Shown in pieces: positions 15,365 to 45,600 of a stretch of 64,000 bases of DNA. The DNA comes from a virus: the IMG/VR virus record IMGVR_UViG_3300021092_000008. One strand, written 5' to 3'. Position 1 is the first letter of the stretch; every line of letters starts with the position of its first letter. The notes below the pieces were generated by a model. That model was not told the origin of the DNA, searched no databases, and saw only the letters and a list, made by a program, of their open reading frames with translations. Position numbers and translations under genes: made by a program.

Positions 15365-15574
15365 ATGTCACAAACGAGATCTCAACAAACAGATCTTACC
15401 GAAGAAGAATGGAAAGAATTAGTCGCCCTTAAAAATCAAATAAATCAAAATCCAGCAGCAGTACATCCAGAAAAAATGGAGTTATTTACTGAATTGTTAG
15501 TTAGATCTTGGAATGCCAAATGTGATCCGCCTGATACTTCTACATGGAGAACTGGTCATCCGCTGGATGAATGA
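15365..15574 (+). CDS. Hypothetical cyanophage protein
   Basis: GGAG SD; EEWKELVALK..I..NPAAVHPEKMELFTELLVRS. Confidence 0.65.
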   Translation: MSQTRSQQTDLTEEEWKELVALKNQINQNPAAVHPEKMELFTELLVRSWNAKCDPPDTSTWRTGHPLDE

Positions 15575-15599
15575 AACAGTTTAACAACTGGCACACACT

Positions 15600-15620
15600 A
15601 CCGCCACATGGCGGTTTTTT
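15600..15620 (+). terminator. Intrinsic terminator
   Basis: ACCGCCA-ca-TGGCGGT followed by a T-run. Confidence 0.6.
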
Positions 15621-15652
15621 AATCTATACTAAATGAGTTCAAGAGATTTCCT

Positions 15653-15829
15653 ATGAAACTTTACCCGCTTGGTCTTGACAACCCCTATGTGATCCGTGGT
15701 ATGATTGGATCAAGTCGGTGGGGGTTGTATCGTCGAGACCCATTTGAAAAGGTAGCAGAATTTGCTACTCAGTTCCAAGCATATGATGCTCGCCGTGCTA
15801 TTCTTAAATTTGAAGGTTACTCAGCATGA
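15653..15829 (+). CDS. Small hypothetical protein (58 aa, not in track)
   Basis: MKLYPLGLDNPYVIRGMIGSSRWGLY..., directly downstream of a module promoter. Confidence 0.6.
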   Translation: MKLYPLGLDNPYVIRGMIGSSRWGLYRRDPFEKVAEFATQFQAYDARRAILKFEGYSA

Positions 15830-16110
15830 AAACTTCCACTGTTATTGAATTTGGTCCCTATTCACAATATAAACCAGTTAAACCACCAAAAACTCCACGA
15901 TACAGATATCCATATTTGGATATTAAACAAACTGGTCAAGATTATGGATTTTTTGTTGGTAGAAAGAAAAGACCTGAGATTCCAAAAACTATTAAAAATC
16001 GTGTTTGGGCAGTTCTTCCCGCCGAAAGAGAAGGACAAAAGGGGTATTACATTTATGTTAAAAATTTCACCAATGGGTTTAATCCTTTTGCAGAAAATAA
16101 TTATGACTGA
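15826..16110 (+). CDS. Hypothetical protein
   Basis: ATGA coupling. Confidence 0.6.
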   Translation: MKTSTVIEFGPYSQYKPVKPPKTPRYRYPYLDIKQTGQDYGFFVGRKKRPEIPKTIKNRVWAVLPAEREGQKGYYIYVKNFTNGFNPFAENNYD

Positions 16111-16306
16111 AGATTCTGTACGTCTAAATGTCCATGAGATTGGTATTCTTCTCTCAGCACTACAACAAGTAGATCTGAGAGAGGAAGTTCAAATTGCCAG
16201 ACAATATGGCAGTGTGGCAGCACTGTATAACAAACTATACAGTGTTTGGGAACAGATGGACACTTCCCAAACTGTCCTACAGAACGACGTAGTGCCGTCC
16301 TTCTGA
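16103..16306 (+). CDS. Hypothetical protein
   Basis: MTEDSVRLNVHEIGILLSALQ; the track start at 15845 overlaps another gene. Confidence 0.6.
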   Translation: MTEDSVRLNVHEIGILLSALQQVDLREEVQIARQYGSVAALYNKLYSVWEQMDTSQTVLQNDVVPSF

Positions 16307-16339
16307 CCCTATAATATCAAAGTATTCAACAGAACTCCA

Positions 16340-16753
16340 ATGGCAACCCGCTCCCGTATCGGTATTCAACTCGCAGACGATTCTGTGCTCTCAGTGTATT
16401 GCCACTGGGATGGTTATCCTGCCTTCAATGGTGTCAAACTTCAACAACATTTCAACACTCGTGAGAAGGTTGCTGAGTTGATTGATGGTGGTGACATCAG
16501 TGCTCTCCACACCAACGTCGGTTGGGATAATGAGACGCTACCTGAAACTGGTCCTCTCTACTATTCTTCTCGTGGTGAGGAGAATCGTGGTCCTCGTCAT
16601 GACTGGCGCATCAGTGACTATCTCACTCAAGATGCAGAAGAGTATGCCTATCTCTTTACCACCGATGGAGAGTGGTTGTGCTACGATACTTGTAAGTGGC
16701 ACGATGTAACTTATCTTGAACTTCAAGAAATTCCTCAACAGGTAGCAGCATGA
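16340..16753 (+). CDS. Conserved phage hypothetical protein
   Basis: MATRSRIG...SVYCHWDGYP...EEYAYLF, a widespread phage early-gene family pattern. Confidence 0.8.
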   Translation: MATRSRIGIQLADDSVLSVYCHWDGYPAFNGVKLQQHFNTREKVAELIDGGDISALHTNVGWDNETLPETGPLYYSSRGEENRGPRHDWRISDYLTQDAEEYAYLFTTDGEWLCYDTCKWHDVTYLELQEIPQQVAA

Positions 16754-16911
16754 AATACTATCTCTTCTTTACCATTCTCTTTGGTTTGATAATCGGGTGG
16801 CAAGCATTCCTTGTCACCAGAGATAATAAAATGTTTGAAGGTTACAAGAACCGTCAACAACAAATTTGTGAACAAGTCAAAGAATTCCACCCTGATTGCC
16901 ACATCGAATGA
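16750..16911 (+). CDS. Small membrane protein (53 aa, not in track)
   Basis: MKYYLFFTILFGLIIGWQAFLV...; ATGA coupling. Confidence 0.55.
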   Translation: MKYYLFFTILFGLIIGWQAFLVTRDNKMFEGYKNRQQQICEQVKEFHPDCHIE

Positions 16912-17054
16912 TTAACGATATCCGTATTGACAAATCATGGCGTTCTACTGATCCTGATGATCTCAACATTGATGATCTAATGCTCATGGCATTTGAAGAA
17001 AAAGCAGCAGAACTTGAAATCACTGTAGATTATTATATGGCAGAGTTTATCTGA
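16908..17054 (+). CDS. Small hypothetical protein (48 aa, not in track)
   Basis: Ends EEKAAELEITVDYYMAEFI; ATGA coupling. Confidence 0.55.
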   Translation: MINDIRIDKSWRSTDPDDLNIDDLMLMAFEEKAAELEITVDYYMAEFI

Positions 17055-17257
17055 TGAGATACAAAGATATTACAAAACTGAAGAATTGCCCAAAGTGTAA
17101 CACAAATTGGGTAGCAGGTGAAATTCCCGAAGAATATCGGGAAAATTATTCTGCTCCGTATTTTTACAGTCGTGTGATTGGTGTTGAATTTCTTGGTGAA
17201 GATCGTATCCATCATTGGATGTGCCCAGATTGTAAATACGAATTCCCACGAGGATAA
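17054..17257 (+). CDS. Zinc-ribbon protein
   Basis: CPKC ... CPDC. Confidence 0.7.
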   Translation: MRYKDITKLKNCPKCNTNWVAGEIPEEYRENYSAPYFYSRVIGVEFLGEDRIHHWMCPDCKYEFPRG

Positions 17258-17260
17258 TAA

Positions 17261-17545
17261 ATGCCTATTACAATTAGTAAAGCGGAAATTCTACGGAACT
17301 TTCCGCATACACCACCGACAGGATACTCTTATGATGTCGAAGATCACAATACTCGTACTGTTCGTATTATTATGTGGCATCATTACGTCTACGACTTCAA
17401 TCTCGGGAAACCAGTCAAAACCATCTGGGGTTTCTATAATCCGAAAAAGAAATTATATTATGCTCCGATCAACTATGATCGTGTAGGTGAACAAGTAGAT
17501 ATTAAAAATACTACTAAATATACAGCGATGCCATTGTTGGTATAA
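17261..17545 (+). CDS. Hypothetical cyanophage protein
   Basis: FPHTPPTGYSY...TIWGFY...TTKYTAMP. Confidence 0.7.
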   Translation: MPITISKAEILRNFPHTPPTGYSYDVEDHNTRTVRIIMWHHYVYDFNLGKPVKTIWGFYNPKKKLYYAPINYDRVGEQVDIKNTTKYTAMPLLV

Positions 17546-17549
17546 TTTT

Positions 17550-17717
17550 ATGACACCTGATCAATCAAATGCTCTATTGAAAGAATATGCTGACCTAATT
17601 AAAGATCTTCAAAATGAAAATGCTGATCTCTGTGATAAGGTACAGATGCTAGAGAATTATATTCAAGAGCTAGAGTTTCAATTTAACACATCACACGATA
17701 AATCTTATGACTGCTGA
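17550..17717 (+). CDS. Small coiled-coil protein (55 aa, not in track)
   Basis: MTPDQSNALLKEYADLIKDLQNENADL... Confidence 0.5.
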   Translation: MTPDQSNALLKEYADLIKDLQNENADLCDKVQMLENYIQELEFQFNTSHDKSYDC

Positions 17718-17970
17718 TATAATCGTAGATTTCGATACACATCTTCATAACGGTAGAGTTTATCTAGTAGAACTAGAATTACCTTATCAAGATGAGAATG
17801 AAGAAGAATCATCTGTAATGAAAGTTGATTACTATGTCATCTCAAATAATTCCATTCAAGCAATGTATTTTGCTAATACTGACTATCCTGATGCTGTAGG
17901 AGTTTTTGTTCATGAAGATCCAATTACACCCGAACAATATGCTACCAGAGGGAACAGAGGTATATTATAG
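17707..17970 (+). CDS. Hypothetical protein
   Basis: ORF in operon. Confidence 0.6.
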   Translation: MTADIIVDFDTHLHNGRVYLVELELPYQDENEEESSVMKVDYYVISNNSIQAMYFANTDYPDAVGVFVHEDPITPEQYATRGNRGIL

Positions 17971-18130
17971 AGGCATGTTTGGTGTAGTCAAATTCACATG
18001 TGATGAATATATGACTGTATGTGTCCGCCATTTCCCTGATGATCCACGGCGAGATGTTTGTATGCTCGTCTATAAAAACCAATTAAATGAACTTGAACTT
18101 GTACGAGGTAACCATTCACACGAATCATGA
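17939..18130 (+). CDS. Hypothetical protein
   Basis: MLPEGTEVYYRGMFGVVKFTCDEYMTVCV. Confidence 0.6.
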   Translation: MLPEGTEVYYRGMFGVVKFTCDEYMTVCVRHFPDDPRRDVCMLVYKNQLNELELVRGNHSHES

Positions 18131-18303
18131 TGTTAAACGATAAATTTGATAATATGAATAATTTTGTCCTTGATCAAGTTGATAATCTCATGGATTGCTA
18201 TGATAATCCTGTAGTCCGTGAGCGTATCCTACGTGAGGCGGAAGATCAATTGTTTGAGGACAGTTTTGAAACTGTCCCCTGGGACCTCCTAGAGGACTTC
18301 TAA
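18127..18303 (+). CDS. Small acidic protein (58 aa, not in track)
   Basis: ATGA coupling; its C-terminal codons contain a module palindrome. Confidence 0.55.
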   Translation: MMLNDKFDNMNNFVLDQVDNLMDCYDNPVVRERILREAEDQLFEDSFETVPWDLLEDF

Positions 18304-18339
18304 ACCTCTATACTAACTACATACCAAACAACCCCACCA

Positions 18340-18693
18340 ATGACTGCTACCTTCGCCCAGTTTCAAGCAGAACAAGACGCTCGTAACACCATCCATCTCA
18401 ACATCGTCAAGTACGGTATGATGTTGTGTGATGCTCTCCAACAGACTGCTCCCGATGGTTATTTCTTCGCCCTTGAGTCTTCTGGTCGTAAGTATCATAA
18501 AGTCTTCATGTATATCGATGGTCGTCGTGACAGCATCCATGCTTTCATTGACAAGAAGACTGGTGATGTGTTCAAACCTGCTAGCATCAAAGCTCCTGCT
18601 AAGCATGTTCGTTTCAATGTGCTCTCTATTCCTTCCCGTGAAGAGATGTTCCGTCGTGCTAACTGGGCGGGTGGTTATCTTTACCTTCGCTGA
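18340..18693 (+). CDS. Conserved phage hypothetical protein
   Basis: GRKYHKV...SIHAFIDKKTGDVFKPAS.KAPAKHVRFN...WAGGYLY. Confidence 0.8.
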   Translation: MTATFAQFQAEQDARNTIHLNIVKYGMMLCDALQQTAPDGYFFALESSGRKYHKVFMYIDGRRDSIHAFIDKKTGDVFKPASIKAPAKHVRFNVLSIPSREEMFRRANWAGGYLYLR

Positions 18694-18732
18694 TTTCTGT
18701 GCTACAATCTTACTAAACACACAAGGAGAATC

Positions 18733-18972
18733 ATGTCCTACAACTTGATGTATGTTGTTATTCAAGATAAAGCACTCAGTATTGATGACTTCGGTCAACC
18801 TATTATCTGTAATCTTGTTCGTGATGAGCATGATTCTATGATTGAATGGGTTGATTGGGATTCTGCTGATGTCATTGATTGGTTAGATCTTTCCCCTACT
18901 ACAAATAAAATCTATCGTCAATGTATTGATCTCCTTCAAACTACAGAAACTAAAGCGTACTACGTCAAATGA
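18733..18972 (+). CDS. Hypothetical protein
   Basis: AAGGAG SD; extended -10 TGcTACAAT at about 18700. Confidence 0.65.
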   Translation: MSYNLMYVVIQDKALSIDDFGQPIICNLVRDEHDSMIEWVDWDSADVIDWLDLSPTTNKIYRQCIDLLQTTETKAYYVK

Positions 18973-19226
18973 CTAAACTCTCTAACCTCACAGTGTCTCA
19001 TATTCAGACACTCATGGAATCATTTCCACAACTCCAACCAGGAACACATACACTCCGTGTATTCCCACATACTCAAATTTCAGAAGCAGAATTAGCACTG
19101 TTCTGGAAATATCATGGTAACTTCCCACAAGAATTTACACAAGCAATTATTAATATCTTACCTAATAATGCTGAATTTATTTCCTATGATCATCTCCTGA
19201 ATAATGTTACTGTTATTCAAAAATGA
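18969..19226 (+). CDS. Hypothetical protein
   Basis: ATGA coupling. Confidence 0.6.
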   Translation: MTKLSNLTVSHIQTLMESFPQLQPGTHTLRVFPHTQISEAELALFWKYHGNFPQEFTQAIINILPNNAEFISYDHLLNNVTVIQK

Positions 19227-19420
19227 TACCAGCAGCTCTTACTATTCTTCAACTCTGCTTCAATCAATATTATATCTGTGAATCACCAGATCCTCCTCCA
19301 ATTGCATACTATCAAGAAGGCTATGCCTGTTATATCAATGGCACCTTTCATCAATCCTGTCCTAAACCAGATTACTTGACAAAACCTACCACAAAATCCT
19401 ATAATAGGAACAACTACTAA
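19223..19420 (+). CDS. Hypothetical Cys-containing protein
   Basis: ATGA coupling. Confidence 0.5.
   Translation: MIPAALTILQLCFNQYYICESPDPPPIAYYQEGYACYINGTFHQSCPKPDYLTKPTTKSYNRNNY
19376..19405 (+). promoter_or_regulatory. sigma70-type promoter TTGACA-N18-TATAAT
   Basis: Perfect hexamers just upstream of ORF 19420. Confidence 0.65.
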
Positions 19421-19650
19421 TGTACACCATGACCGAAGAGCAATCAGTATCAAAACAAGTGGATCATATCCTAGAAACTTATTTTGAACAGTTCTCTCAT
19501 CTCGTATCTAAAAATCGTAATGATGATGCTATTGCTATCGGTGATGAGGTACGTGAGTGGATGCGTAGTATTGAAACAGAAACTATTCTATACTTTAATA
19601 TTAAAGAACTACGCCAACAATATAGACAATTAAAAAAAGAAAATGGCTGA
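19420..19650 (+). CDS. Hypothetical protein
   Basis: ORF downstream of the promoter. Confidence 0.65.
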   Translation: MYTMTEEQSVSKQVDHILETYFEQFSHLVSKNRNDDAIAIGDEVREWMRSIETETILYFNIKELRQQYRQLKKENG

Positions 19651-20263
19651 TCCAGCAGCATTATACAATACTAAATTACCAAAAGATATTACTGACCTTA
19701 TCTCTATTCATTGTCAGTCATATCATAATCAATTAGAAGCATCAACAATTAAATCTAGTGGTGTAGTACATTCAAAAAGAGATTCTCTTAATGCTTGGAT
19801 TCCAGATGAAGATTGGATAGCAGGTTTTCTTTGGTATTATATCCAAAAAGCAAATTTTGCTAATTGGAGATTTGATATTACATCTATTGATAATTCCTCC
19901 TTACAATATACAGTCTATAATCCTGGTCAATTCTATCATTGGCATACTGATTCAGGATTACGTCGATTGTATCAATCAGAAAGATATCCTACTTCTCAAT
20001 CAGTTCATCTAAAAGATTACGTTATGCCATTAGCAGAATATACTCGTAAATTATCTTTCTCTCTTCAACTATCAGACTCAGATGAATATACAGGAGGACA
20101 ATTACAACTCATTGCTAATGATGATCTAAACCTTAATATAGCACCAGTAGAAAGAGGTACATTAATTATCTTTGATTCTCATCTACGTCATCGTGTTACT
20201 AAAGTTAAATCAGGTCAACGTAAATCTTTAGTCGGTTGGGTAGTAGGTCCAAGATGGAAATAG
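19643..20263 (+). CDS. 2OG-Fe(II) oxygenase (PKHD-type)
   Basis: LQYTVY..GQFYHWHTD...RKLSFSLQLS....YTGGQL...FDS...HRVTKVKSGQRKSLVGWVVGPRWK. Confidence 0.85.
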   Translation: MADPAALYNTKLPKDITDLISIHCQSYHNQLEASTIKSSGVVHSKRDSLNAWIPDEDWIAGFLWYYIQKANFANWRFDITSIDNSSLQYTVYNPGQFYHWHTDSGLRRLYQSERYPTSQSVHLKDYVMPLAEYTRKLSFSLQLSDSDEYTGGQLQLIANDDLNLNIAPVERGTLIIFDSHLRHRVTKVKSGQRKSLVGWVVGPRWK

Positions 20264-20330
20264 TTTTCCACAATTTCCACAGTTTCCGCAATTTCCACAG
20301 GTATTTAAAAATATATTAAAAAATATAGGT
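20264..20330. repeat. Four tandem 9-mers resembling DnaA boxes, plus an AT-rich tract
   Basis: TTTTCCACA ATTTCCACA GTTTCCGCA ATTTCCACA (20264-20299), then TATTTAAAAATATATTAAAAAATATA. Confidence 0.7.
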
Positions 20331-20379
20331 AGTGTGATCTATTGTACGGTAGAGTATGTAAATGGGCGGAGGTCTTGTT

Positions 20380-20408
20380 GTCTTAGCGCCCAACCCATCG
20401 AAAGTCAA
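20380..20408 (-). promoter_or_regulatory. Minus-strand promoter TTGACT-N17-TAAGAC
   Basis: Reverse complement of 20380-20408; the -10 lies 31 bp from the palindrome at 20417-20438. Confidence 0.5.
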
Positions 20409-20456
20409 GGAAGTATATGACAGTCCTCAAAGTGGCACAGAGACCCTCCGAGACCC

Positions 20457-20485
20457 TTGACAGATGCCTCTAAATGCCCTATACT
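20457..20485 (+). promoter_or_regulatory. sigma70-type promoter TTGACA-N17-TATACT
   Basis: Consensus hexamers and spacing. Confidence 0.7.
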
Positions 20486-20666
20486 GTATTTGTGATTGGT
20501 CATCACGAAATTAAATGGAAGCGAGATTGAGAGATTTCGAGGTTTTCCAAAATCTTCGAAATCTCAAAAATCTCAAAATCTCAAAAACTTAAAAAACTTA
20601 CTTTTTTAGTTTTTTAAGATTTTCAAAAAACTCAATTTTTAAATTTTAATGATTTTACTGAATTCA

Positions 20667-20921
20667 ATGATTACTAAAGAAGATCAAGGAGTAGTATATC
20701 AAGGATTTAATAGTACTGCTATTAAATCAGTTGGTATTATTGAGAATACTTGTACTGTAGTATTTAATTCTAGTGATAAAGAATATAATTACACAGTAAT
20801 TGATAATAATTTTGAAGAAAACCTTCAAAATACTATCAAAAATGGTGAAAGTGTTGGTAAATTTATCACTTCAGCAATCAAAAGTGAAAATATCCAACAA
20901 ATAAATACGATTGTACAGTAA
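20667..20921 (+). CDS. KTSC-like domain protein
   Basis: NSTAIKSVG....CTVVFNS...YNY...ESVGKFI resembles the KTSC pattern; alternative start at 20649. Confidence 0.55.
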   Translation: MITKEDQGVVYQGFNSTAIKSVGIIENTCTVVFNSSDKEYNYTVIDNNFEENLQNTIKNGESVGKFITSAIKSENIQQINTIVQ

Positions 20922-20953
20922 TTCTTAACAATTATCACTGTTTTATTCAAACA

Positions 20954-21118
20954 ATGACAAAAAACAACCGAAAGTATACCGAATCCTTCAAAGAAGTGAG
21001 CTTTGAAGATGAATATGAAGATTATGGTTATGAAGTTCAGAATGCCAAACGTTACTCAAGTCGAAGTAAACGTCAAGCAAAATTCAAAGACCACGATGAT
21101 ACATACGTAGACTATTGA
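20954..21118 (+). CDS. Small charged protein (54 aa, not in track)
   Basis: MTKNNRKYTESFKEVSFEDEYEDYGYEV...; followed by a terminator. Confidence 0.55.
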   Translation: MTKNNRKYTESFKEVSFEDEYEDYGYEVQNAKRYSSRSKRQAKFKDHDDTYVDY

Positions 21119-21132
21119 ATGTAAACTTTACC

Positions 21133-21155
21133 ACCCATCTTCGGATGGGTTTTTT
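21133..21155 (+). terminator. Intrinsic terminator with a UUCG tetraloop
   Basis: ACCCATC-TTCG-GATGGGT-TTTTT. Confidence 0.85.
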
Positions 21156-21270
21156 CATAGCATCAAATATCCCCTCGGTGGTATCACCCTAGGACAGTTT
21201 AAGAAGTGGCACAGAAGACCTCCCAGGGGTGTCTGGTGGTGATATATTACATGAGTCGTCAGGAATTCCA

Positions 21271-21447
21271 ATGAAGGACATTCGAATCGAGGTTCAAACT
21301 TACGATGGTTGTATCACCATCTGGTACGAACGTTCTAAGTTAAAGAATGCCTGTGATGTTATCTCCAAACGTGTATACAATCAGCTGTGTGGTTTGAATA
21401 TTAAAGAGATCGACGTGAGCGTTATCGGTGATCCTGTGACAGTCTGA
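21271..21447 (+). CDS. Small early protein (58 aa)
   Basis: MKDIRIEVQTYDG..., downstream of the module -10 at 21243. Confidence 0.65.
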   Translation: MKDIRIEVQTYDGCITIWYERSKLKNACDVISKRVYNQLCGLNIKEIDVSVIGDPVTV

Positions 21448-21519
21448 CAAGTGTCCACAGGGCATTGACTTCGCCCCCAACCCATGCCATACTATGTACA
21501 TCACTGAGGGATTCACCCC

Positions 21520-21846
21520 ATGAGAAAGATCGAACGTCTGATGAACGCTGCCATCACCGAGCAACGTGACTGGAAACTTGATAACACTGAAGTTGTCACT
21601 ATTGATGGTGTCAGTTCTGTATTTCTTCACGGCAATTGTATTGCTGAGGTTGGTGATACTTTTGTCCGACTGTTTGATGGTGGTTGGCAATCCAATACCA
21701 CCAAATCTCGTCTCAATGCTATCCTTCGGGAGCATGGTCGTGATGGTGAGTGTGTGTTTCAAAAGCAGTGGCATTGGTTCATTAATCTGAACACTGACCG
21801 AGGTATTGAAACTGTGCCTTTCCGTTCTTCTATGAAACTTGCTTGA
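21520..21846 (+). CDS. Conserved phage hypothetical protein
   Basis: MRKIE..MNAAI...LHGNCIA...DGGWQSNTTKSRLNAIL. Confidence 0.8.
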   Translation: MRKIERLMNAAITEQRDWKLDNTEVVTIDGVSSVFLHGNCIAEVGDTFVRLFDGGWQSNTTKSRLNAILREHGRDGECVFQKQWHWFINLNTDRGIETVPFRSSMKLA

Positions 21847-21961
21847 GTATGTCACATTACTCAACTCCTTACATTCCCAGTTTTATTGAATATTCAAATT
21901 TTACAAAAATATGGATTTTTTGGATTTTCAAAATTTTAAAAACTATTAAATCTCAATAATT

Positions 21962-22078
21962 ATGACTTTTACTGATTATCTAATTGAAGAGATTAACGAT
22001 GAAGAATTCTATGAAGATATAGAATTCGATGATAGTAGTGCTAACTACTATGATATAGATTATACTACTCAAGAGTAG
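21962..22078 (+). CDS. Very acidic peptide (38 aa, not in track)
   Basis: MTFTDYLIEEINDEEFYEDIEFDDSSANYYDIDYTTQE. Confidence 0.4.
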   Translation: MTFTDYLIEEINDEEFYEDIEFDDSSANYYDIDYTTQE

Positions 22079-22116
22079 TATATACAAACCCCACTGTTCT
22101 TTTGCTTTCTTTTACT

Positions 22117-22293
22117 ATGTCTACTTCACTGATGATTAAACTGCTGGATCGTACCGCTAATGGTAACGAACTGTTGAAAGTTCTTGATAGTTTTGTCGAG
22201 CAAGATCCTGTCGATCAGCATATGGAACTGATGACTGAAATGTATGACAAAATGAAGTCTAATCAGCCTACACTAGAAACCATCGATTTCTGA
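22117..22293 (+). CDS. Small hypothetical protein
   Basis: MSTSLMIKLLDRTANGNELLKVLDS. Confidence 0.6.
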   Translation: MSTSLMIKLLDRTANGNELLKVLDSFVEQDPVDQHMELMTEMYDKMKSNQPTLETIDF

Positions 22294-22379
22294 TATTAAT
22301 GTGCCAGATCAACAAGTGTCCACTGATTCCCCCATTGGTCACTTGTTGATGCCATACTACATCTGTTCCAAACGAAATC

Positions 22380-22505
22380 ATGCCTGACTTCTACACATTC
22401 ACTGGTGACGGTATTACCATTCTTGGTTTGGTTGGTATTATCTCAACTGGTATCATTGTTGCCACAGCGTTCACTCGTTATTTCAATTCACCCCTGAGAA
22501 AGTGA
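22380..22505 (+). CDS. Single-TM peptide (41 aa, not in track)
   Basis: MPDFYTFTGDGITILGLVGIISTGIIVATAFTRYFNSPLRK, after a module promoter. Confidence 0.6.
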   Translation: MPDFYTFTGDGITILGLVGIISTGIIVATAFTRYFNSPLRK

Positions 22506-22681
22506 TGACGTACAACGAACTCCTGCAACAGTTGCAACAACTCAACGAAGATCAACTCAATTCTGATGTTGCCGTCTACGATGAAGGCACCGATGAGTAT
22601 TATCAACTCAAAGTTGAGTTAGTGTTTGCAACTGATGAATGTCAGGTGCTTGATGTAGACCACCCTATCATTCGTTTCTGA
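22505..22681 (+). CDS. Small acidic protein (58 aa, not in track)
   Basis: MTYNELLQQLQQLNEDQLNSDVAVYD...; TGATG coupling at both ends. Confidence 0.65.
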   Translation: MTYNELLQQLQQLNEDQLNSDVAVYDEGTDEYYQLKVELVFATDECQVLDVDHPIIRF

Positions 22682-22881
22682 TGCAATTCCAAGTTACTTC
22701 CATTGAGTATGATTTCACTGGATCTGAGGATGAGATTACAGATGCTGAGATGAATGACATCATCGACGATACAGTAGGACACATCTGGGAGGCAGATGAT
22801 GAAGATGATCTCATTGAAGAGATCACTTCGTGGACAGGTTGGTGCATCAAATCCATTGATTATCGTCACATTCTGAACTGA
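22681..22881 (+). CDS. Small acidic protein
   Basis: FQVTSIEYDF...WEADDEDDLIEEIT..TGWCIKSIDY. Confidence 0.7.
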   Translation: MQFQVTSIEYDFTGSEDEITDAEMNDIIDDTVGHIWEADDEDDLIEEITSWTGWCIKSIDYRHILN

Positions 22882-22885
22882 AACC

Positions 22886-23134
22886 ATGACCAACAACGCT
22901 TACACTTGGACTGACAACTTCTCCGAACTTTGTGAGAAGTATGCTGAACATGTGATGGACAGCATGGACATGAAGACGATGGAACAATTCGTCTTCGATA
23001 CACTTTACGAGTGCTATTCTGCCTATGATGAAGAACAGTTGATCAATGAGATTCGTGAGTTGTATGGTGACGAAGTGCTGGAAGATTTTGGCATTGAACT
23101 TAAAGAAGGTCCAGATGATGTGACAGTTGACTAA
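22886..23134 (+). CDS. Small acidic protein
   Basis: YAEHVMDSMDMKTMEQFVFD; the stop falls inside a module palindrome. Confidence 0.7.
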   Translation: MTNNAYTWTDNFSELCEKYAEHVMDSMDMKTMEQFVFDTLYECYSAYDEEQLINEIRELYGDEVLEDFGIELKEGPDDVTVD

Positions 23135-23201
23135 GTGGTACACAGGGGGTTGAAATGCCCCCTGATCGATGCCATACTAACCACATCAACCACAAACACA
23201 G

Positions 23202-23375
23202 ATGTACTACAACCGCTACGACATGCTGACCGCCTTTACCACTGACGAGATGGCAGTGCTCTATGATCTGGTCTGCTCCCATCAGGGCTGCCAGATCCTC
23301 CCCGACTGGATGGATCAAAAGGTCTTCGACAGTGTACAGGAAAAAGTCAGCGACGCCTACCATGAGACCACATGA
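23202..23375 (+). CDS. Small early protein (57 aa, not in track)
   Basis: MYYNRYDMLTAFTTDEMAVLYDLV..., after a C/A-rich leader. Confidence 0.65.
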   Translation: MYYNRYDMLTAFTTDEMAVLYDLVCSHQGCQILPDWMDQKVFDSVQEKVSDAYHETT

Positions 23376-23482
23376 ATCACTACCTTGCCGCCGCTCTCCT
23401 GATGATCGTCGCCATCGGTTTCCCCATGATGTGTGCCGCCTTGGGCATGAAGGTCAACACCCGCAACGGATGGTGGGACTGA
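23372..23482 (+). CDS. Single-TM peptide (36 aa, not in track)
   Basis: MNHYLAAALLMIVAIGFPMMCAALGMKVNTRNGWWD; ATGA coupling. Confidence 0.55.
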   Translation: MNHYLAAALLMIVAIGFPMMCAALGMKVNTRNGWWD

Positions 23483-23544
23483 CCACCTGACTAAGTGGCA
23501 CATAGGGGGTTGAAATGCCCCCCGATCCATGCCATACTAACAGC

Positions 23545-23733
23545 ATGAACAACCTTAACCCCTCACTGATGGAACGCCGCTTCACCGTCTACGTTCCGTC
23601 TGACCCCTGGGAATCTATCGACTGCCAGACCTGGGCAGAGGCGCAGCGCCTGCTCGCCATCAAAGCAGACGAGTTCGTCTACGCTGAGATTCGGAAGGAT
23701 GGGGTGATCCTTGACGATCTCCAGATCCTGTGA
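23545..23733 (+). CDS. Small early protein, probably leaderless (62 aa)
   Basis: The ATG lies 6 nt after the -10 CATACT (23533-23538). Confidence 0.6.
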   Translation: MNNLNPSLMERRFTVYVPSDPWESIDCQTWAEAQRLLAIKADEFVYAEIRKDGVILDDLQIL

Positions 23734-23815
23734 CAGTGGAGGCACTGTCCACCAACTACCCCAAACCCCATCAGGGGCTGCCATACTAAGAGCATCAACC
23801 AAACGAACCAAACCT

Positions 23816-24013
23816 ATGTGGGATGAGATCCAAGACATGCCTGGCGAGATCTACGACGTGAACCCCTACGTCGCTCAGATCCTCTCCCAAGGCAAAGAGC
23901 CCAGCAAGGCACCCGCCCCCACGGCGACCTACCCTCGGGAAATCCACGGTCGAGTCTACCAGACCGAGGCAGAATACCGTGAGGACCTCCATGACTTTCT
24001 GAACGGTATGTGA
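23816..24013 (+). CDS. Small early protein (65 aa)
   Basis: MWDEIQDMPGEIYD..., after the leader CATCAACCAAACGAACCAAACCT. Confidence 0.7.
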   Translation: MWDEIQDMPGEIYDVNPYVAQILSQGKEPSKAPAPTATYPREIHGRVYQTEAEYREDLHDFLNGM

Positions 24014-24091
24014 CAGTGTAGGGGGTGTCCACAGATGCCCCCAAACCCCACCAGGGGCTGCCATACTATCAGCATCAACCAAACCAAACCA

Positions 24092-24265
24092 ATGAAGATC
24101 GAAGTTCGTTACCAGACCCCCTACAGCAGCCAGGAGTGGCGGTCACAGTGGTTCCCCACGCTGGCAGAGGCTGAGCGGATGGTGGACTTCTACCGCTCCT
24201 GTGGATCACCCGCCCATGTGGCACCTAGCAGTCTGGCACAGTTCGAGCACCTCGGGCGCTCCTGA
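24092..24265 (+). CDS. Small early protein (57 aa)
   Basis: MKIEVRYQTPY...EWRSQWFPTLAEAERMVDFYRSCGSPA. Confidence 0.7.
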   Translation: MKIEVRYQTPYSSQEWRSQWFPTLAEAERMVDFYRSCGSPAHVAPSSLAQFEHLGRS

Positions 24266-24303
24266 CCCTGTAGACTAACCACATCAACCAAACGACTCAA
24301 ACC

Positions 24304-24525
24304 ATGACGACCTACAACGGATGGGCAAACTGGGAGACCTGGAACGTCGCCCTGTGGATTCAGAACGATGAGCGGACCTACAACCTCGCTCAAAAGTTCA
24401 CCCGCTACAACGCTCTCATTCCCCACCTTGAGATGCTGTGGGGGCAGATGACCCCAGACGGTGCCCGTTGGATGGACGCTAAGATCGACACCGACGAACT
24501 GGACGAGATGCTGGACGATTTCTGA
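24304..24525 (+). CDS. Conserved phage hypothetical protein
   Basis: TYNGWANWETWNVALWIQNDE...TPDG. Confidence 0.75.
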   Translation: MTTYNGWANWETWNVALWIQNDERTYNLAQKFTRYNALIPHLEMLWGQMTPDGARWMDAKIDTDELDEMLDDF

Positions 24526-24597
24526 ACTGTCCACAGGGGGGCGCCTTCCCCCCTCCCCCGCCTCTATACTAAACACATCAACCAAACGAACCAGACC

Positions 24598-24774
24598 ATG
24601 CTCAAGACTCTCGCCATCCTCGCCCTCGGCGCCGCCTTCTATGCCCCCATCGCTACCGTGGGTGCTGCTGCCATCGACTTCGCTGCTGACACCGTTCAGG
24701 CAGTCAACCAACAGACCGCCGCCCGCTGTGCCACCTACAACAGTGTCCTCCCTGGCGCCTGTGAGATGCCCTGA
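24598..24774 (+). CDS. Small secreted or membrane protein (58 aa, not in track)
   Basis: Signal-like N-terminus MLKTLAILALGAAFYAPIA; Cys pair near the C-terminus. Confidence 0.65.
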   Translation: MLKTLAILALGAAFYAPIATVGAAAIDFAADTVQAVNQQTAARCATYNSVLPGACEMP

Positions 24775-24812
24775 GCGTCTAGACTAACCACATCAACCAA
24801 ACGACTTCAACC

Positions 24813-24968
24813 ATGGCAACCACTTCCTTCGCTTACGGCAACTCCTACTCCCAGTCCGACCGCTTCTATGAGGACTGTGAGCACGACGACCTGATGGACG
24901 CCGACGATTACGATGCCCGCCGCTTCCAGCGTGACGGTTGGGAAAGCGCCTGCTGGGATGGTCGCTGA
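24813..24968 (+). CDS. Small acidic protein (51 aa, not in track)
   Basis: MATTSFAYGNSYSQSDRFYEDCEHDDLMDADDYDARRFQRDGWESACWDGR. Confidence 0.65.
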   Translation: MATTSFAYGNSYSQSDRFYEDCEHDDLMDADDYDARRFQRDGWESACWDGR

Positions 24969-25010
24969 CCCCCTGACCCTGTAGACTAACCACACACACA
25001 CAGACACCAC

Positions 25011-25211
25011 ATGAATTTCGCAACCGCCACCCCCGAGCAACTCACCGCCGCTGGGTTCAAGTTCAAGACCGTCCGCCCCCGCCGCCCACGTAAGGGTGAG
25101 TTGATCTGTGAGATGGTCAAGTTCAGCACCAAGCGAGGCAGTCAGCAGTGGCGAGATCGTGCTCACATCGCCTCTCCCAGCGCCTACGCTGTTGTGATGG
25201 GCAACGGTTGA
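25011..25211 (+). CDS. Small basic protein (66 aa)
   Basis: Last module ORF; follows a CA-repeat leader. Confidence 0.65.
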   Translation: MNFATATPEQLTAAGFKFKTVRPRRPRKGELICEMVKFSTKRGSQQWRDRAHIASPSAYAVVMGNG

Positions 25212-25393
25212 TCCTAGCACACCCCCAGGGGGGGCAGTGGTTTGCCCCCGCCCCCTAGGTGGGCGGCGCGCCGAGCGGGTCCCATATTTGACCCTCTCTA
25301 ACCTACAAAAGTATCCAGACGACCGAAATAAATAACGATAGGATCCCTAATCCAAAAAATTTCCGCCACAAAAAAATCACCCCAAAAGTCGCC

Positions 25394-27375: not shown

Positions 27376-29175
27376 ATGCCATACACTCAGGTTTCTAATC
27401 TAGACTTTAATGATATTAAAGTAGCGTTAAAAGATTATTTAAAGACACAATCTGATTTTACTGGTTATGATTTTGAGGGTTCTGTATGGAACACTCTTCT
27501 TGATGTGTTGGCATATAACACATACTACACGGCATTCAATACCAACATGGTAGTGAATGAACTATTTTTAGATTCTGCCACATTAAGAGATAATGTTGTA
27601 GCAATTGCTAAGCAGTTAGGATACACACCAAAGTCTGCTATTGCTCCAGAAGCAAGAGTTAATTTCCAGATTAATTTTACAGGTACAATTCCAACTACAA
27701 TCACCTTAAAGAAAGGAACTGGATTTACAACCATTTATGATGGTGATTTATATGAGTATGTTACCGTTGATAATATAACCGCTCCAGTTGTAGCTGGGGT
27801 TGCCAATTTTACAAATGTTCCAATTTACGAAGGAACTATTGTCACAAATTCATATACTATTAACACATCACTAAAAAGTCAAAGATTTATTATTCAGAAT
27901 GTGGGATTAGATGTATCATCTATTCGTGTCAAAGTTTTCGATACAGTTTCTTCGACAGCATATAAAACTTTTGAATATTCAAATAATATCCTTGATGTCA
28001 ATTCACAATCACTTGTTTTCTTTGTAGAAGAAATTGAAGACGAGAATTATGAAATTTTCTTTGGTGATGGTGTAATTGGAAAGAAATTACTTAATGGTAA
28101 TTTTGTTGAGGTTACATATTTACTCACAAATGGTTCCGCCACAAATGGTTCTAGACAATTTACATTTGCTGGCGTGTTACAAGATATTGATGGACTAACT
28201 AATTATCCATTTACAGTGACAAATGTAACTACAGCATCGATTGCTTCTGGCGGAGAAGAAGTTGAAAGTATTTCTAAAATCAAATTTAATGCTCCAAAAT
28301 ATTTTGGTACACAAGATAGAGCAGTTACGGCACAAGATTATGCTGCTATTGTAAGAAATATATACCCATCTATTTCTGATATTATCACTTATGGCGGAGA
28401 AAACGAAGTACCACCAGAATATGGAAAAGTTAAAATTGTTATTAAACCAAAAAATACCGCTTCACTATCGGTTCTAACAAAAAGAGATCTTACAGAAAAA
28501 TTAAAATCTTACATGGTAGGATCTGTGATTCCAGAAATTGTAGACCCATCTATTCTTTATCTAGAATTAATCAGTGATATATCTTTCAGTAAATCAAGAA
28601 CAACTCTTTCTGCAGCAGAAATTAAGAAAAAAGTTATTCAAACTATAGAAAAATATCTTGCTCAATCTGAAGTAGAAAAATTCAATGGTAAATTTAGATT
28701 AAGTAAAATTATTGGAACGATTGATAATACTGACCAATCAATTAATTCTAATAATACTAGAGTCATAATGAGGAAGGATTTTTATCCTGCTCTCAATTCA
28801 ACATTTTATTATGAGTTATGCTATCAGAATGAATTTGATTATGATTGTGATAGTCCTGCTGTACAATCAACTGGATTTGTTGTTAGTGAGTATCCCAACT
28901 TCACTTGCTATGTTGAAGATATGGATGGTGTGATTGTCCTATATAGATTGGATTCTCTAACTGGCGAAAAGATTGTTTTGAATGATTCTTTAGGTAAAGT
29001 TGATTATATTAAAGGTGAGGTGATGATGTACAATTTAACTATCATTAAAGGGTCTTTTGATGACAATAGAATTGAATTGAGAGTTAGACCAAAAAATGGT
29101 GATATTAATGTTTTAAGAGAAGCTTATATTGATGTAGATATTGCTCAAAGTAAATTTACGGTATATCCAGAATAA
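27376..29175 (+). CDS. gp6: Baseplate wedge subunit gp6
   Basis: LDFNDIK..LK.YL....FTGYDFEGS...LLDVLAYNTYY; QDRAVTAQDY; PPEYGKV. Confidence 0.93.
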   Translation: MPYTQVSNLDFNDIKVALKDYLKTQSDFTGYDFEGSVWNTLLDVLAYNTYYTAFNTNMVVNELFLDSATLRDNVVAIAKQLGYTPKSAIAPEARVNFQINFTGTIPTTITLKKGTGFTTIYDGDLYEYVTVDNITAPVVAGVANFTNVPIYEGTIVTNSYTINTSLKSQRFIIQNVGLDVSSIRVKVFDTVSSTAYKTFEYSNNILDVNSQSLVFFVEEIEDENYEIFFGDGVIGKKLLNGNFVEVTYLLTNGSATNGSRQFTFAGVLQDIDGLTNYPFTVTNVTTASIASGGEEVESISKIKFNAPKYFGTQDRAVTAQDYAAIVRNIYPSISDIITYGGENEVPPEYGKVKIVIKPKNTASLSVLTKRDLTEKLKSYMVGSVIPEIVDPSILYLELISDISFSKSRTTLSAAEIKKKVIQTIEKYLAQSEVEKFNGKFRLSKIIGTIDNTDQSINSNNTRVIMRKDFYPALNSTFYYELCYQNEFDYDCDSPAVQSTGFVVSEYPNFTCYVEDMDGVIVLYRLDSLTGEKIVLNDSLGKVDYIKGEVMMYNLTIIKGSFDDNRIELRVRPKNGDINVLREAYIDVDIAQSKFTVYPE

Positions 29176-42600: not shown

Positions 42601-45600
42601 TCAGAAAAGATTTTACTACTGATTTATCATCAAGTGGTGGAACAATCACATTCTCCGCTCAATTACCTGTAGGAACACAAAGATTTGTTACTCCGACAGA
42701 AAATAATTATATTTTAACAGTATTAGATAAAGGATCATCAACTATTGTTGATAATGGAGATATTGTTTACATCGATTTTACAGATCCTTCTGTAGTACAG
42801 GTTATTCAATCAACTAATACAAATTCTCAAGTTACAGCTGGTTCTTTTGTCATCAATTTACCAAATACGTATTTCGGTATTATTAATCAAGGTGGAACAT
42901 ATCCAAAATTAAAACTTACCGCCACAGTAGAAGTTAACAAAGCAAAAGCAAGATTAAAAACTTCAATAAGCAACAAAAGAATTATAATTGTATCTTCTGG
43001 AGATAAAGTTATTCCACTAAGGGGGAAAGATTATGATACAGATACAATTGAAGTATTCTCATATTCTGATGTCTATAAACTAAGATACGTTTATGAGGGT
43101 ACATCTACTAATCCACCTAAAGTTGATGCTAACGGTAATTTAATTAGTGGCACGGATATTACTTATAAATTTACTTTTGATGATGGTCAAAGAGATACTT
43201 TCTACGATATTTCCAGAATTGTTCTTAAACCAGGATTTGATGCTCCTTCTGGTCAATTAGTTGTAGCATTTGATTACTTTGAGCATTCTTTAGGAGATTT
43301 TTGTACCGTAGATTCATACTTACATGAAGCGGGAGTTTCTTCGGAGTTAATTCCTACTTTTAATTCTACAGTACATGGAGTTGTTTCATTAAAAGACGTT
43401 ATTGATTTCAGACCAAAAGTAGATTCTAATACTACAATAACTGGATTCCAAGATATATCTATTCTTTCAAATCCAAACAATTTTGATTATGTCAATTTTG
43501 TTGGCGCTGGTGGTGTAGTTTCACTTACACCAGCATCTGATTCTAATTTAGAGTATACAATGTCATTTAGTGAAACACAGTATCTAGACAGAATTGATGG
43601 TGTTTTCTTAACGAAGAAAGGAGATTTTCTAATTAAAGAAGGTAATTCTTCATTAAATCCTTCAAAACCAGAAGCAGTTGATGATGCTATTAGTTTGTGT
43701 TACATACACATCCCATCATTTACTAACACTAGTAAAGATATTAGAATTCTTCCCGTTGATAACAAACGTTATACAATGAGAGATATTGGCAAATTAGAAA
43801 AAAGAATTGAGCGTTTAGAATATTATACTACACTAAGCATCTTAGAACAACAAGCATTAAACATGCAAGTCAAAGATGAAATTGGAATGGACAGATTTAA
43901 ATCTGGTTTTATTGTAGATAATTTCGAAGCTCATAAAATTGGTAATTTACAATCAGTTGATTATAAATGTGCTATTGATACTCAGCAATCTGTGTTGAGA
44001 CCTCAATCAAAAGAAGATAGCATTGGATTAAAAGAAGTTAATATAAGAGAAGATCAACGTATTGTTTCTGGTTATGTCAATAATAATGGAATTATTACTC
44101 TTCCATATAAAGAAGTTAAATTATTAGGAAATAGTAATGCCACCAAAACAATCAATCCAAACGAATTTGTTGTCCTACAATACGTAGGAGATTGTGCTAT
44201 CTTTCCTACTGTAGATCAGTGGTATGATACAAAAACTGCTCCTTTGGTAGTAGATAGTAATACAAAATTAAATACTATATTTTTAGCTAAAAGTGATGTA
44301 AAAGAATCATTTTCTAGTTTACACAACTCATTTATTATTAATTGGGTTGGAACTAATAAATCATTTTTCAATATAGAATCTTTAGCAAACATTAATAGTG
44401 AAGATATTAAATCTTCTGTAAGTTCTGCTTCTGTGTCGAGTAGTTCAAATGTTAGCCCTCAAAATAATGAATTAGCAAAAGGTGTTGGATCTAAAGTTGT
44501 TAATAACACCAAAGTGTCAACTGGATTACAATTTTTCGTAAGATCTATTCCTGTTAGATTTATTGTTCGTAGATTAAAACCCAACACTAAAATTTCTGTT
44601 TTCATGGAAGGTAGAAATATTAATCGTTGGGTTGTTCCTGATACTAAATTTACTGGTATTGCAGAAAATTCACTTTCTACATTTAATTCTTCTTTGATTA
44701 CAGACGATAATGGAAATTTAAGTGGTATTATTTTAATTCCTAATGGTCTTGCTCCAGTAGAAAACAGTAAGTGGACTGGAGATATTAACACTGTTTCTTA
44801 TGATGATTCTTCTGAAGAAATTAAATTTACTACTGGCACAAAAACAATTATATTGACTTCAGGATCTTCTGGATCAATTACTGACAATGTTGATACTTTT
44901 GCTGAAGTCAAGTTTTATGCTACTGGCATTTTGCCAGAAAATCCTTCTAGTATTGTATCAACAGCACCATCATTCTTCAAAGCTAATGAAGGTGTACAGT
45001 TGATTAATAACAACACCCAATCAAAAATTAAACCAAATCCTTTGGCACAAACTTTTAAAGTAGAAAATTATGATGGTGGGGTATTTACTACTGGTTTAGA
45101 TTTGTTCTTCTCAGCAAAAAGTTCTAAGATTCCTATTAGAGTTTATATTTCAAATATAGATACAGATAAACCAGGAAAATATATTGTACCTGGAACTGAA
45201 TCAACTTTATATCCAGATACTTATTTAAAGGTATATTTAACTGGTGATGTAGAAACAATCAAAATTAAAAAATCAGAAGTAGTAGTTGGCAAAAATTCTA
45301 ATGCTAGTGGTCCTATTTCTAAAGTGTACGACAAAAACAATATTTTAGTTGGGGACGAAAATAGCACAGAATTTGAATTAAATAAAGAACAAGTATATAC
45401 GTTAGTTTTAAGTAATCATAATGGCAAATCTTTCGTAGGTGGCAGTACAGGTGAGCCATTGACGATTCCATCAGTTACAACATATAATGCTACTAATAAT
45501 AAATCAGCATTAATTTCTATCACTAAAGATTCTGGTAGAGTTGTTGATTTAAAAGTTACTAATTTAGGAGAAAATTACGAAAGTGCTTCTATTGTTATAG

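Follow-up and report, generated by a model that had tools for sequence, protein, structure and literature searches.

T4-like cyanophages possess neither motA nor asiA nor middle promoters of the T4 type, an absence of the MotA/AsiA system that had been asserted in the original prediction on the DNA studied here and that is borne out by the literature. This DNA is a stretch of 64,000 nucleotides from the IMG/VR virus record IMGVR_UViG_3300021092_000008 (hereafter the window, which always denotes the whole 64 kb), and the element in question is a 22-bp dyad, the box, which precedes the -10 hexamer of 15 promoters. Doron et al. 2016 (ISME J 10:1437) reportedly described a novel regulatory element that controls the transcription of early genes in Syn9 and P-TIM40 and that is abundant, and conserved, in T4-like cyanophages. 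Like that element, the box is located upstream, at a fixed distance from a sigma-70-type -10, in promoters in which a -35 is absent or weak; its carrier differs in being a divergent, uncultured lake-water phage. In the MotA/AsiA-dependent middle promoters of T4 an upstream box likewise replaces the -35. However, the MotA box resides at -30 and requires the phage proteins MotA and AsiA, whereas the dyad described here lies at about -53 in front of putative first-wave genes. The PeSL (promoter early stem-loop) cassettes of T4-type coliphages and vibriophages (Arbiol et al. 2010; Comeau et al. 2014, PMC4122927) are, as here, repeated composite promoter units among tiny variable genes, some of them with a stem-loop, and near-identical units flank unrelated genes. 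In contrast to the box promoters, PeSLs combine an ordinary sigma-70 early promoter with a terminator and lack an upstream dyad, and among the spacer hairpins of the window only one is followed by a U-tract. Few PeSLs are described in a paper on the cyanophage S-PM2 (PMC4503421).

A host counterpart is found in the promoters of the small RNA Yfr2. In marine picocyanobacteria these contain CGRE1, a palindrome of 21-22 nt with GTTG or GTTA at its flanks, of the general form CAAC-N13/14-GTTG and with its arms 1-2 bp apart (Lambrecht et al. 2018, PMC6191309). In the same study a pull-down on CGRE1 enriched the Prochlorococcus protein PMM1637, the GntR-family regulator PlmA, 28-fold; wild-type PMM1637, but not the R50A variant, shifted CGRE1 in an electrophoretic mobility shift assay (EMSA), and PMM1637 raised the output of green fluorescent protein from the yfr2 and yfr4 promoters in an Escherichia coli reporter, in work confined to yfr2 and yfr4 of MED4 (PMC6191309). 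PlmA is a dimer, is universal in and restricted to the cyanobacteria, and has been linked to PII-PipX and thioredoxin (PMC7344720). None of the papers searched linked CGRE1 or PlmA to cyanophages.

A 22-bp box at a fixed distance from the -10 hexamer

The box consists of two 9-bp half-sites, GTG(A/C)CAGTT and AACTG(T/G)CAC, separated by 4 bp. About 15 promoters with this box had been claimed, and 14 copies listed, in the original prediction; all 14 listed 22-mers were present where they had been placed when each position was printed, and the distances from box end to -10, which had been counted by hand, proved exact for all of them once the -10 hexamers had been located by rule. This gap measures 30 bp at 15573, 18257, 21191, 21436, 22301, 23730, 24010 and 24728, 31 bp at 16257, 23120, 23480, 24218 and 24512, and 29 bp at 24931, a weak copy of 9.7 bits. 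When a symmetrised weight matrix derived from the 13 good copies was run along the entire 64 kb, it returned these 13 together with one that had been overlooked, at 20417 (ATGACAGTCCTCAAAGTGGCAC), which brings the count to 15 and is positioned 41 bp 5' of the -10 of a perfect TTGACA-17-TATACT promoter. Thus, the gap is 29-31 bp in 14 of the 15 copies. Leave-one-out scores of the boxes ranged from 13 to 24 bits, and the window holds 14 matches of at least 17 bits, compared to a mean of 0.05 expected from 100 first-order Markov simulations of 64 kb; throughout the window, nothing above 12 bits was detected outside 15.5-25 kb. For all 15 boxes the -10 is found on the + strand side, and a search for divergent promoters at the boxes revealed no consistent leftward -10.

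The boxes occupy an early-type region (15573..25211, + strand) which, according to the lists of open reading frames (ORFs) and the box scan, comprises about 45 small + strand ORFs and the 15 box-plus-(-10) promoters. Promoters and microgenes alternate here in a closely packed array: most boxes overlap the stop codon or the last codons of the preceding gene, and the ATG of the next gene follows about 27-35 nt 3' of the -10. The window itself belongs to a divergent T4-like cyanophage of the family Kyanoviridae. Its ORFs yield Pfam matches to Kyano_Gp96, gp25, several 2-oxoglutarate (2OG) oxygenases and cyanophage domains of unknown function (DUFs), at the DNA level it matches myoviruses of Synechococcus and Prochlorococcus over short stretches, and DNA comparison identified no close relative among the cultured phages of the phage collection. 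The DNA of positions 20300-25300 was found in 24 metagenome runs from lake water, dated 2018, 22 of which contained half or more of the sampled words, and no RNA run was among the matches. On this account the phage is a freshwater representative of a family whose members are mostly marine.

A -35-like hexamer is present in four of the 15 promoters and missing from the other 11. Three of the four, at 21465, 23150 and 23510, had been named previously and are located 17 bp from their -10. In seven promoters, namely all six with CATACT and the one with TATATT, the -10 is preceded by TGn and hence is of the extended type, a feature that had gone unnoticed.

Since the box is a dyad, it might equally be read as RNA. 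Its arms can form between three and seven of eight pairs, and the variable positions (G/C at 7 and 16, A/C at 4, T/G at 19) change independently, without covariation. The fold z-score of the box is near zero in nine of 15 copies, and in none of the 15 does a T-run directly follow the box. An RNA hairpin or intrinsic terminator was therefore rejected, as the arms lack compensatory changes, fold z-scores are mostly near zero and a U-tract is missing. The box is a double-stranded DNA site, because specific bases rather than pairing have been kept.

The same box and spacing recur in other phages. A scan of Syn9 (NC_008296) returned boxes of 14-22 bits at 43114, 44775, 47205, 48559, 49079, 51001 and 52997, all with a gap of 29-30 bp to TATATT, CATACT, TATTCT or TATACT; these boxes at 43-53 kb precede the tiny genes gp55-gp90 and the helicase gene gp75, and further boxes reside elsewhere in the genome, at 127493 and 148743. 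An exact-pattern scan detected the box on at least 119 IMG/VR contigs, from which 115 unique promoter segments, chosen by the box alone, were used to count spacings. A -10-like hexamer was present at a gap of 28-32 bp in 90% of these segments, compared to 19-29% at control offsets, and the best -10 within a range of 56 positions fell at a gap of 29-32 bp in 88 of the 115. The 41-bp gap of the copy at 20417 had raised a second spacing mode, one helical turn further, as a possible rule; with only two of the 115 metagenomic promoters showing it, this was dismissed. Positions 9 (T) and 14 (A), which had been left free in the search pattern, were enriched among the segments, and the half-site is therefore 9 bp long, GTGACAGTT. 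The fixed spacing of 29-31 bp holds in the window, in Syn9 and in the 115 metagenomic segments.

Given that both Syn9 and at least 119 contigs from viral metagenomes possess the same box and spacing, the box promoter is a class shared by T4-like cyanophages, and the caution about novelty voiced in the original prediction was well placed. The box is almost certainly the promoter element of the known early class of cyanophages, a class that was reportedly described in 2016. Specifically, the Syn9 scan indicates that it is probably the early-gene element of Doron et al. 2016.

Likeness to the promoters of the host RNA Yfr2

Yfr2 genes were located with the Rfam family RF01701 (Cyano-1), which we take to be the Yfr2 family, in three marine Synechococcus genomes (reached via psbA) and 58 further Cyanobiaceae genomes; the matches carry the GTGAGGAG motif. 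Upstream regions of 39 yfr2 genes were compared with 351 control windows from the same loci. Two forms of host element were apparent among the 39 regions, a palindrome of the type AACTG(T/G)CAC-W-GTG(A/C)CAGTT(G) (form A) and a second arrangement, (A/T)GGACAGTT(G/A)-N4/5-AGCGCC (form B). The start of the half-site, GTG(A/C)CAGTT or GGACAGTT, lies in both forms 63-69 nt 5' of GTGAGG, a motif of the RNA. The right half of the weak phage copy at 24931 (GTGACGGTTGGGAAAGCGCCTG) reads AGCGCC and resembles the form B box of the host.

The matrix of the phage half-site scored a median of 10.9 bits in the 39 yfr2 promoters compared to 4.0 bits in the control windows, with at least 12 bits being reached in 26% of the yfr2 regions and in 0% of the controls. 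The 22-bp phage matrix, correspondingly, reached at least 10 bits in 44% of the yfr2 regions and 0.6% of the controls, the best match being located 63-69 nt before GTGAGG. At this place, 23 of the 39 promoters possess the half-site, and in 18 of these 23 the best -10 follows 29-31 bp after the nominal 22-bp box, such that the host half-site starts about 52 bp 5' of the -10, as in the phage. In each column, phage and host show the same base preferences (A is favoured over C at position 4 and G over C at position 7; consensus t-GTG(A/C)CAGTT), and this agreement includes the flanking T and the T at position 9, neither of which had been used to choose the sites. Thus, the phage box has the same 9-bp half-site as CGRE1 at the same distance from the -10, and the host element is an activator site upstream of a promoter without a -35. 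A difference lies in what is transcribed, as the phage element precedes protein-coding microgenes and the host element precedes Yfr2. By-eye comparison with the consensus sequences of NtcA, CRP, LexA, CIRCE, sigma-54 and the Pho box gave no fit to the box.

What may read the box

Assuming a transcription start 7 nt 3' of the -10, the dyad would be located at about -64 to -43, with its centre at -53.5. In the mechanism that we propose, host RNA polymerase with the housekeeping sigma factor would read the -10, while a dimeric activator that already exists in the cell would occupy the dyad and provide the contact that normally comes from the -35. Tiny host-takeover genes would then fire at once after DNA entry, without the need for a phage protein; the boxes would mark first-wave promoters, and the dimer on the dyad would be host PlmA. 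In the original prediction, a dimeric phage or host factor had been envisaged which binds near -53 and substitutes for the -35. This idea gains indirect support from the fixed spacing of 29-31 bp in the window, in Syn9 and in the 115 metagenomic segments and from the reading of the arms as DNA, and the half-site and geometry shared with the yfr2 promoters of the host, which have a known GntR activator, point in the same direction by analogy. We consider it likely that the box acts as an activator site. As the yfr2 element through which PMM1637 activates transcription has the same half-site as the phage box, at the same distance from the -10, PlmA is the best candidate for the reader, although its identification as such, suggested by sequence comparison, is tentative. 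Taken as a whole, the view that the box promoters are early-class promoters of a freshwater T4-like cyanophage, with the host activator PlmA as best candidate reader, is the one towards which we lean. Syn9 reportedly runs one and the same program in three different hosts, and the universality of PlmA would fit this.

Several observations weigh against this view. The yfr5 promoter, which has only one intact half, was not shifted in the EMSA (PMC6191309), and binding of PMM1637 therefore depends on paired halves. The pairing differs between host and phage: in the host, AACTGKCAC-1 bp-GTGMCAGTT, the CAC and GTG ends of the arms face each other and the second arm lies upstream of the shared half-site, whereas the phage dyad has the everted order, its second arm being located downstream after a spacer of 4 bp, and does not form the host palindrome. 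Accordingly, the dyad centre lies at about -65 in host form A and at about -53.5 in the phage, a shift of about 11 bp. In the 61 host genomes, the phage-type dyad is not enriched, with nine sites compared to 15 for a reversed-pattern control, and three of the nine are a conserved coding motif of a LysR-type gene. The geometry of the host element is also not uniform, since in several marine Synechococcus the CGRE1 palindrome adjoins the -10, at about -40 to -20, which differs from the upstream position described for Prochlorococcus. Finally, that the box is one and the same as the element reported by Doron et al. 2016 is probable, on the Syn9 scan, rather than certain. GntR proteins are built from flexibly linked winged-helix domains, and acceptance of the everted pair by a PlmA dimer is plausible for this reason.

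Two side observations concern the host arrangements. The palindrome that adjoins the -10, ACTGGCAC-A-GTGCCAGT, is present in six marine Synechococcus yfr2 loci (L206, L207, L208, L210, L229 and L248), several of which also keep a single half-site near -65. One Cyanobiaceae genome, G036, possesses two everted dyads of the phage type (loci L221 and L218) with the -10-like hexamers TATAGT and TAAATT at 30-31 bp, one of them directly 3' of a Yfr2-like gene; these may be phage-type host promoters or phage-derived DNA.

The box could be read by something other than PlmA, i.e., a phage protein that is delivered with the virion or made from a first transcript, or a different host factor, in which case the likeness to yfr2 would reflect shared ancestry or coincidence. 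The everted order of the half-sites, being essentially specific to phages and not enriched in host genomes, would be in line with this, as would the fact that binding of PMM1637 is known for the host arrangement only (PMC6191309). The 64-kb window moreover covers only a quarter to a third of the genome, and a regulator gene could lie elsewhere. However, when the 80 + strand ORFs of 1-27.4 kb were compared with Pfam, none matched a GntR or helix-turn-helix (HTH) family or any other that clearly binds DNA, and in the early-type region the matches are to cyanophage DUFs, 2OG oxygenases and the like, with neither an HTH nor a GntR family among them. The sole hint of a DNA-binding fold among these small genes is a weak match of MazE/AbrB type (SpoVT-AbrB fold; E = 0.005) in one small ORF within 1-27400. 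An early promoter in need of a phage-made protein would also face a bootstrap problem, and the half-site together with its distance from the -10 matches the host element far beyond the control windows. We regard another reader as rather unlikely.

A different role would be that of an operator, where a phage or host repressor would shut down early transcription on the switch to the middle phase, with initiation depending on the extended -10 alone. Repressors typically use palindromic operators, and with TGn in seven of the 15 promoters and a -35-like hexamer in four, some of them could fire unaided. Eight promoters, however, have neither TGn nor a -35, and a site that ends 30 bp 5' of the -10 misses the polymerase footprint, unlike the usual operator. 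Tight phasing of 29-31 bp across diverged copies is what contact between a protein and polymerase predicts, and the host counterpart is an activator site (PMC6191309); shut-off by a repressor thus appears improbable. Finally, the box might function in RNA or in recombination, either as a hairpin or terminator at the 3' end of the preceding gene or as a PeSL-like cassette boundary for gene shuffling. Its overlap with the 3' end or stop codon of the upstream ORF in most copies is compatible with such a role, as are the pairs of modules that are 75-82% identical beside unrelated genes, the GC hairpins with a z-score of -2 or lower in eight of the 15 spacers, one of them a true terminator, and the composite terminator/promoter nature of PeSLs (PMC4122927). 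Against this stand the incomplete pairing of the arms without compensatory changes, the lack of a U-tract after the box and the conservation of bases instead of pairing across phages and host promoters, and any shuffling may be a by-product of repeated promoters. We consider this explanation very improbable, and an activator site remains the reading that we prefer for the box.

The individual promoters and their possible meaning for infection

All 15 promoters are oriented on the + strand. In the first (15573..15630), the box (15573-15594) is followed by a 30-bp spacer with a terminator hairpin and by TATACT at 15625, and the promoter leads into ORF 15653-15829. This spacer (15595-15624) is a full intrinsic terminator, CCGCCACATGGCGG followed by T6, with a fold z-score of -4.2, which means that a promoter at times encloses the signal at which the transcript of the preceding unit ends. 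Spacers between box and -10 fold into a GC hairpin with a z-score of -2 or lower in eight of the 15 copies, and only this one hairpin has a U-tract. In the second promoter (16257..16315) the box (16257-16278) falls within the 3'-terminal part of the preceding ORF, and a gap of 31 bp separates it from TATAAT at 16310 in front of ORF 16340-16753. The best palindrome, with seven of eight arm pairs, is the box (18257-18278) of the third (18257..18314), from which TATACT at 18309 is separated by 30 bp and which serves ORF 18340-18693.

The fourth promoter (20417..20485) combines its box (20417-20438) with TTGACA-17-TATACT, the -10 being located at 20480 after a gap of 41 bp. About 170 nt then separate it from ORF 20649-20921; this interval has no convincing ORF and no match to an Rfam family. 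The promoter lies in a non-coding stretch (20264-20650) with tandem short repeats, TTTCCACAG-like units and then AAATCTCAAAA-like units, and a leftward TTGACT-17-TAAGAC is situated 31 bp from the box. This stretch may be a small RNA or an origin-like region. No Rfam family reached its gathering score anywhere in the window, and matches in 20.2-22.2 kb were at chance level.

The next three promoters share a TGn-extended -10. In that at 21191..21248 the box (21191-21212) is separated by 30 bp from TATATT at 21243, ahead of ORF 21271-21447; at 21436..21493 the box (21436-21457) overlaps the upstream stop codon and is followed by a -35, TTGACT, at 21465 and by CATACT at 21488, ahead of ORF 21520-21846; and at 22301..22358 the box (22301-22322), a gap of 30 bp and CATACT at 22353 precede a run of ORFs (22380-23134).

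Eight promoter-microgene units, the last of the array, are spanned by a sharp island of high G+C content (23000-25300), with 54-59% compared to 27-42% in most of the window; the window has about 33% overall, and 54-59% within 23-25 kb. Six leaders in the island have AACCACATCAACCAAAC-like text 3' of the -10. The composition suggests a block that was acquired from, or adapted to, a high-GC background of the Cyanobium type. The first four units have a TGn-extended CATACT. At 23120..23178, the box (23120-23141) is followed by a GGGGG/CCCCC hairpin, TTGAAA at 23150 and, after a gap of 31 bp, the -10 at 23173 (ORF 23202-23375). At 23480..23538, the box (23480-23501) has a gap of 31 bp to the -10 at 23533, and the ORF extends from an ATG at 23545 to 23733. 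The upstream TGA stop is contained in the box (23730-23751) of 23730..23787, with a gap of 30 bp and the -10 at 23782 (ORF 23816-24013), and the box (24010-24031) of 24010..24067 likewise has a gap of 30 bp, the -10 being located at 24062 and the ORF running from an ATG at 24092 to 24265. In the remaining four, the box at 24218-24239 (promoter 24218..24276) has a gap of 31 bp to TAGACT at 24271 and serves ORF 24304-24525; that at 24512-24533 (24512..24570) has a GGGGGG/CCCCCC hairpin in its 31-bp spacer and TATACT at 24565, in front of ORF 24598-24774; that at 24728-24749 (24728..24785) has a gap of 30 bp to TAGACT at 24780 and leads into ORF 24813-24968; and the weak box (9.7 bits) of 24931..24987 has a gap of 29 bp to TAGACT at 24982, upstream of ORF 25011-25211. 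The modules form pairs that are 75-82% identical, i.e., 23120/23480 (80%), 23730/24010 (82%) and 24218/24728, while the genes downstream of them are unrelated. This suggests that near-duplicate promoter modules also foster the shuffling of cassettes as a by-product, in analogy to what has been proposed for the PeSLs of other T4-type phages (PMC4122927).

Beyond the array, a weak box of 11.7 bits (27800-27858; TTGCCAATTTTACAAATGTTCC) is followed after 31 bp by TATACT and by a leader similar to those of the early units (ATTAACACATCAC). It resides inside an ORF of 599 amino acids (27376-29175) and may be an internal promoter or a product of chance.

T4-like cyanophages kill a large share of the picocyanobacteria of oceans and lakes, and what triggers their first genes has been a standing question since the early element was reported, given that MotA/AsiA is absent and the early promoters do without a -35. 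The promoter class of the window has very probably been described before; what is new is a freshwater example with 15 copies and, as a testable hypothesis, the link to PlmA and yfr2. The comparison with yfr2 puts forward PlmA as a concrete candidate for the reader, one for which published assays are available. If this candidate fails, the element is an ordinary member of the described class. From the resemblance of the promoters, it might be speculated that T4-like cyanophages start infection by copying the architecture of the Yfr2 promoter, such that host PlmA would switch on the takeover genes. If this is true, the first wave of phage transcription would be coupled through PlmA, with its links to the nitrogen/energy sensor PII-PipX and to thioredoxin, to the nutritional and redox state of the host, and early phage expression would depend on a host regulator tied to the sensing of nitrogen, light and redox. 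Such a dependence would bear on host range, on intracellular resistance, to which loss or change of PlmA would be a route, and on the success of infection in relation to nutrient status.

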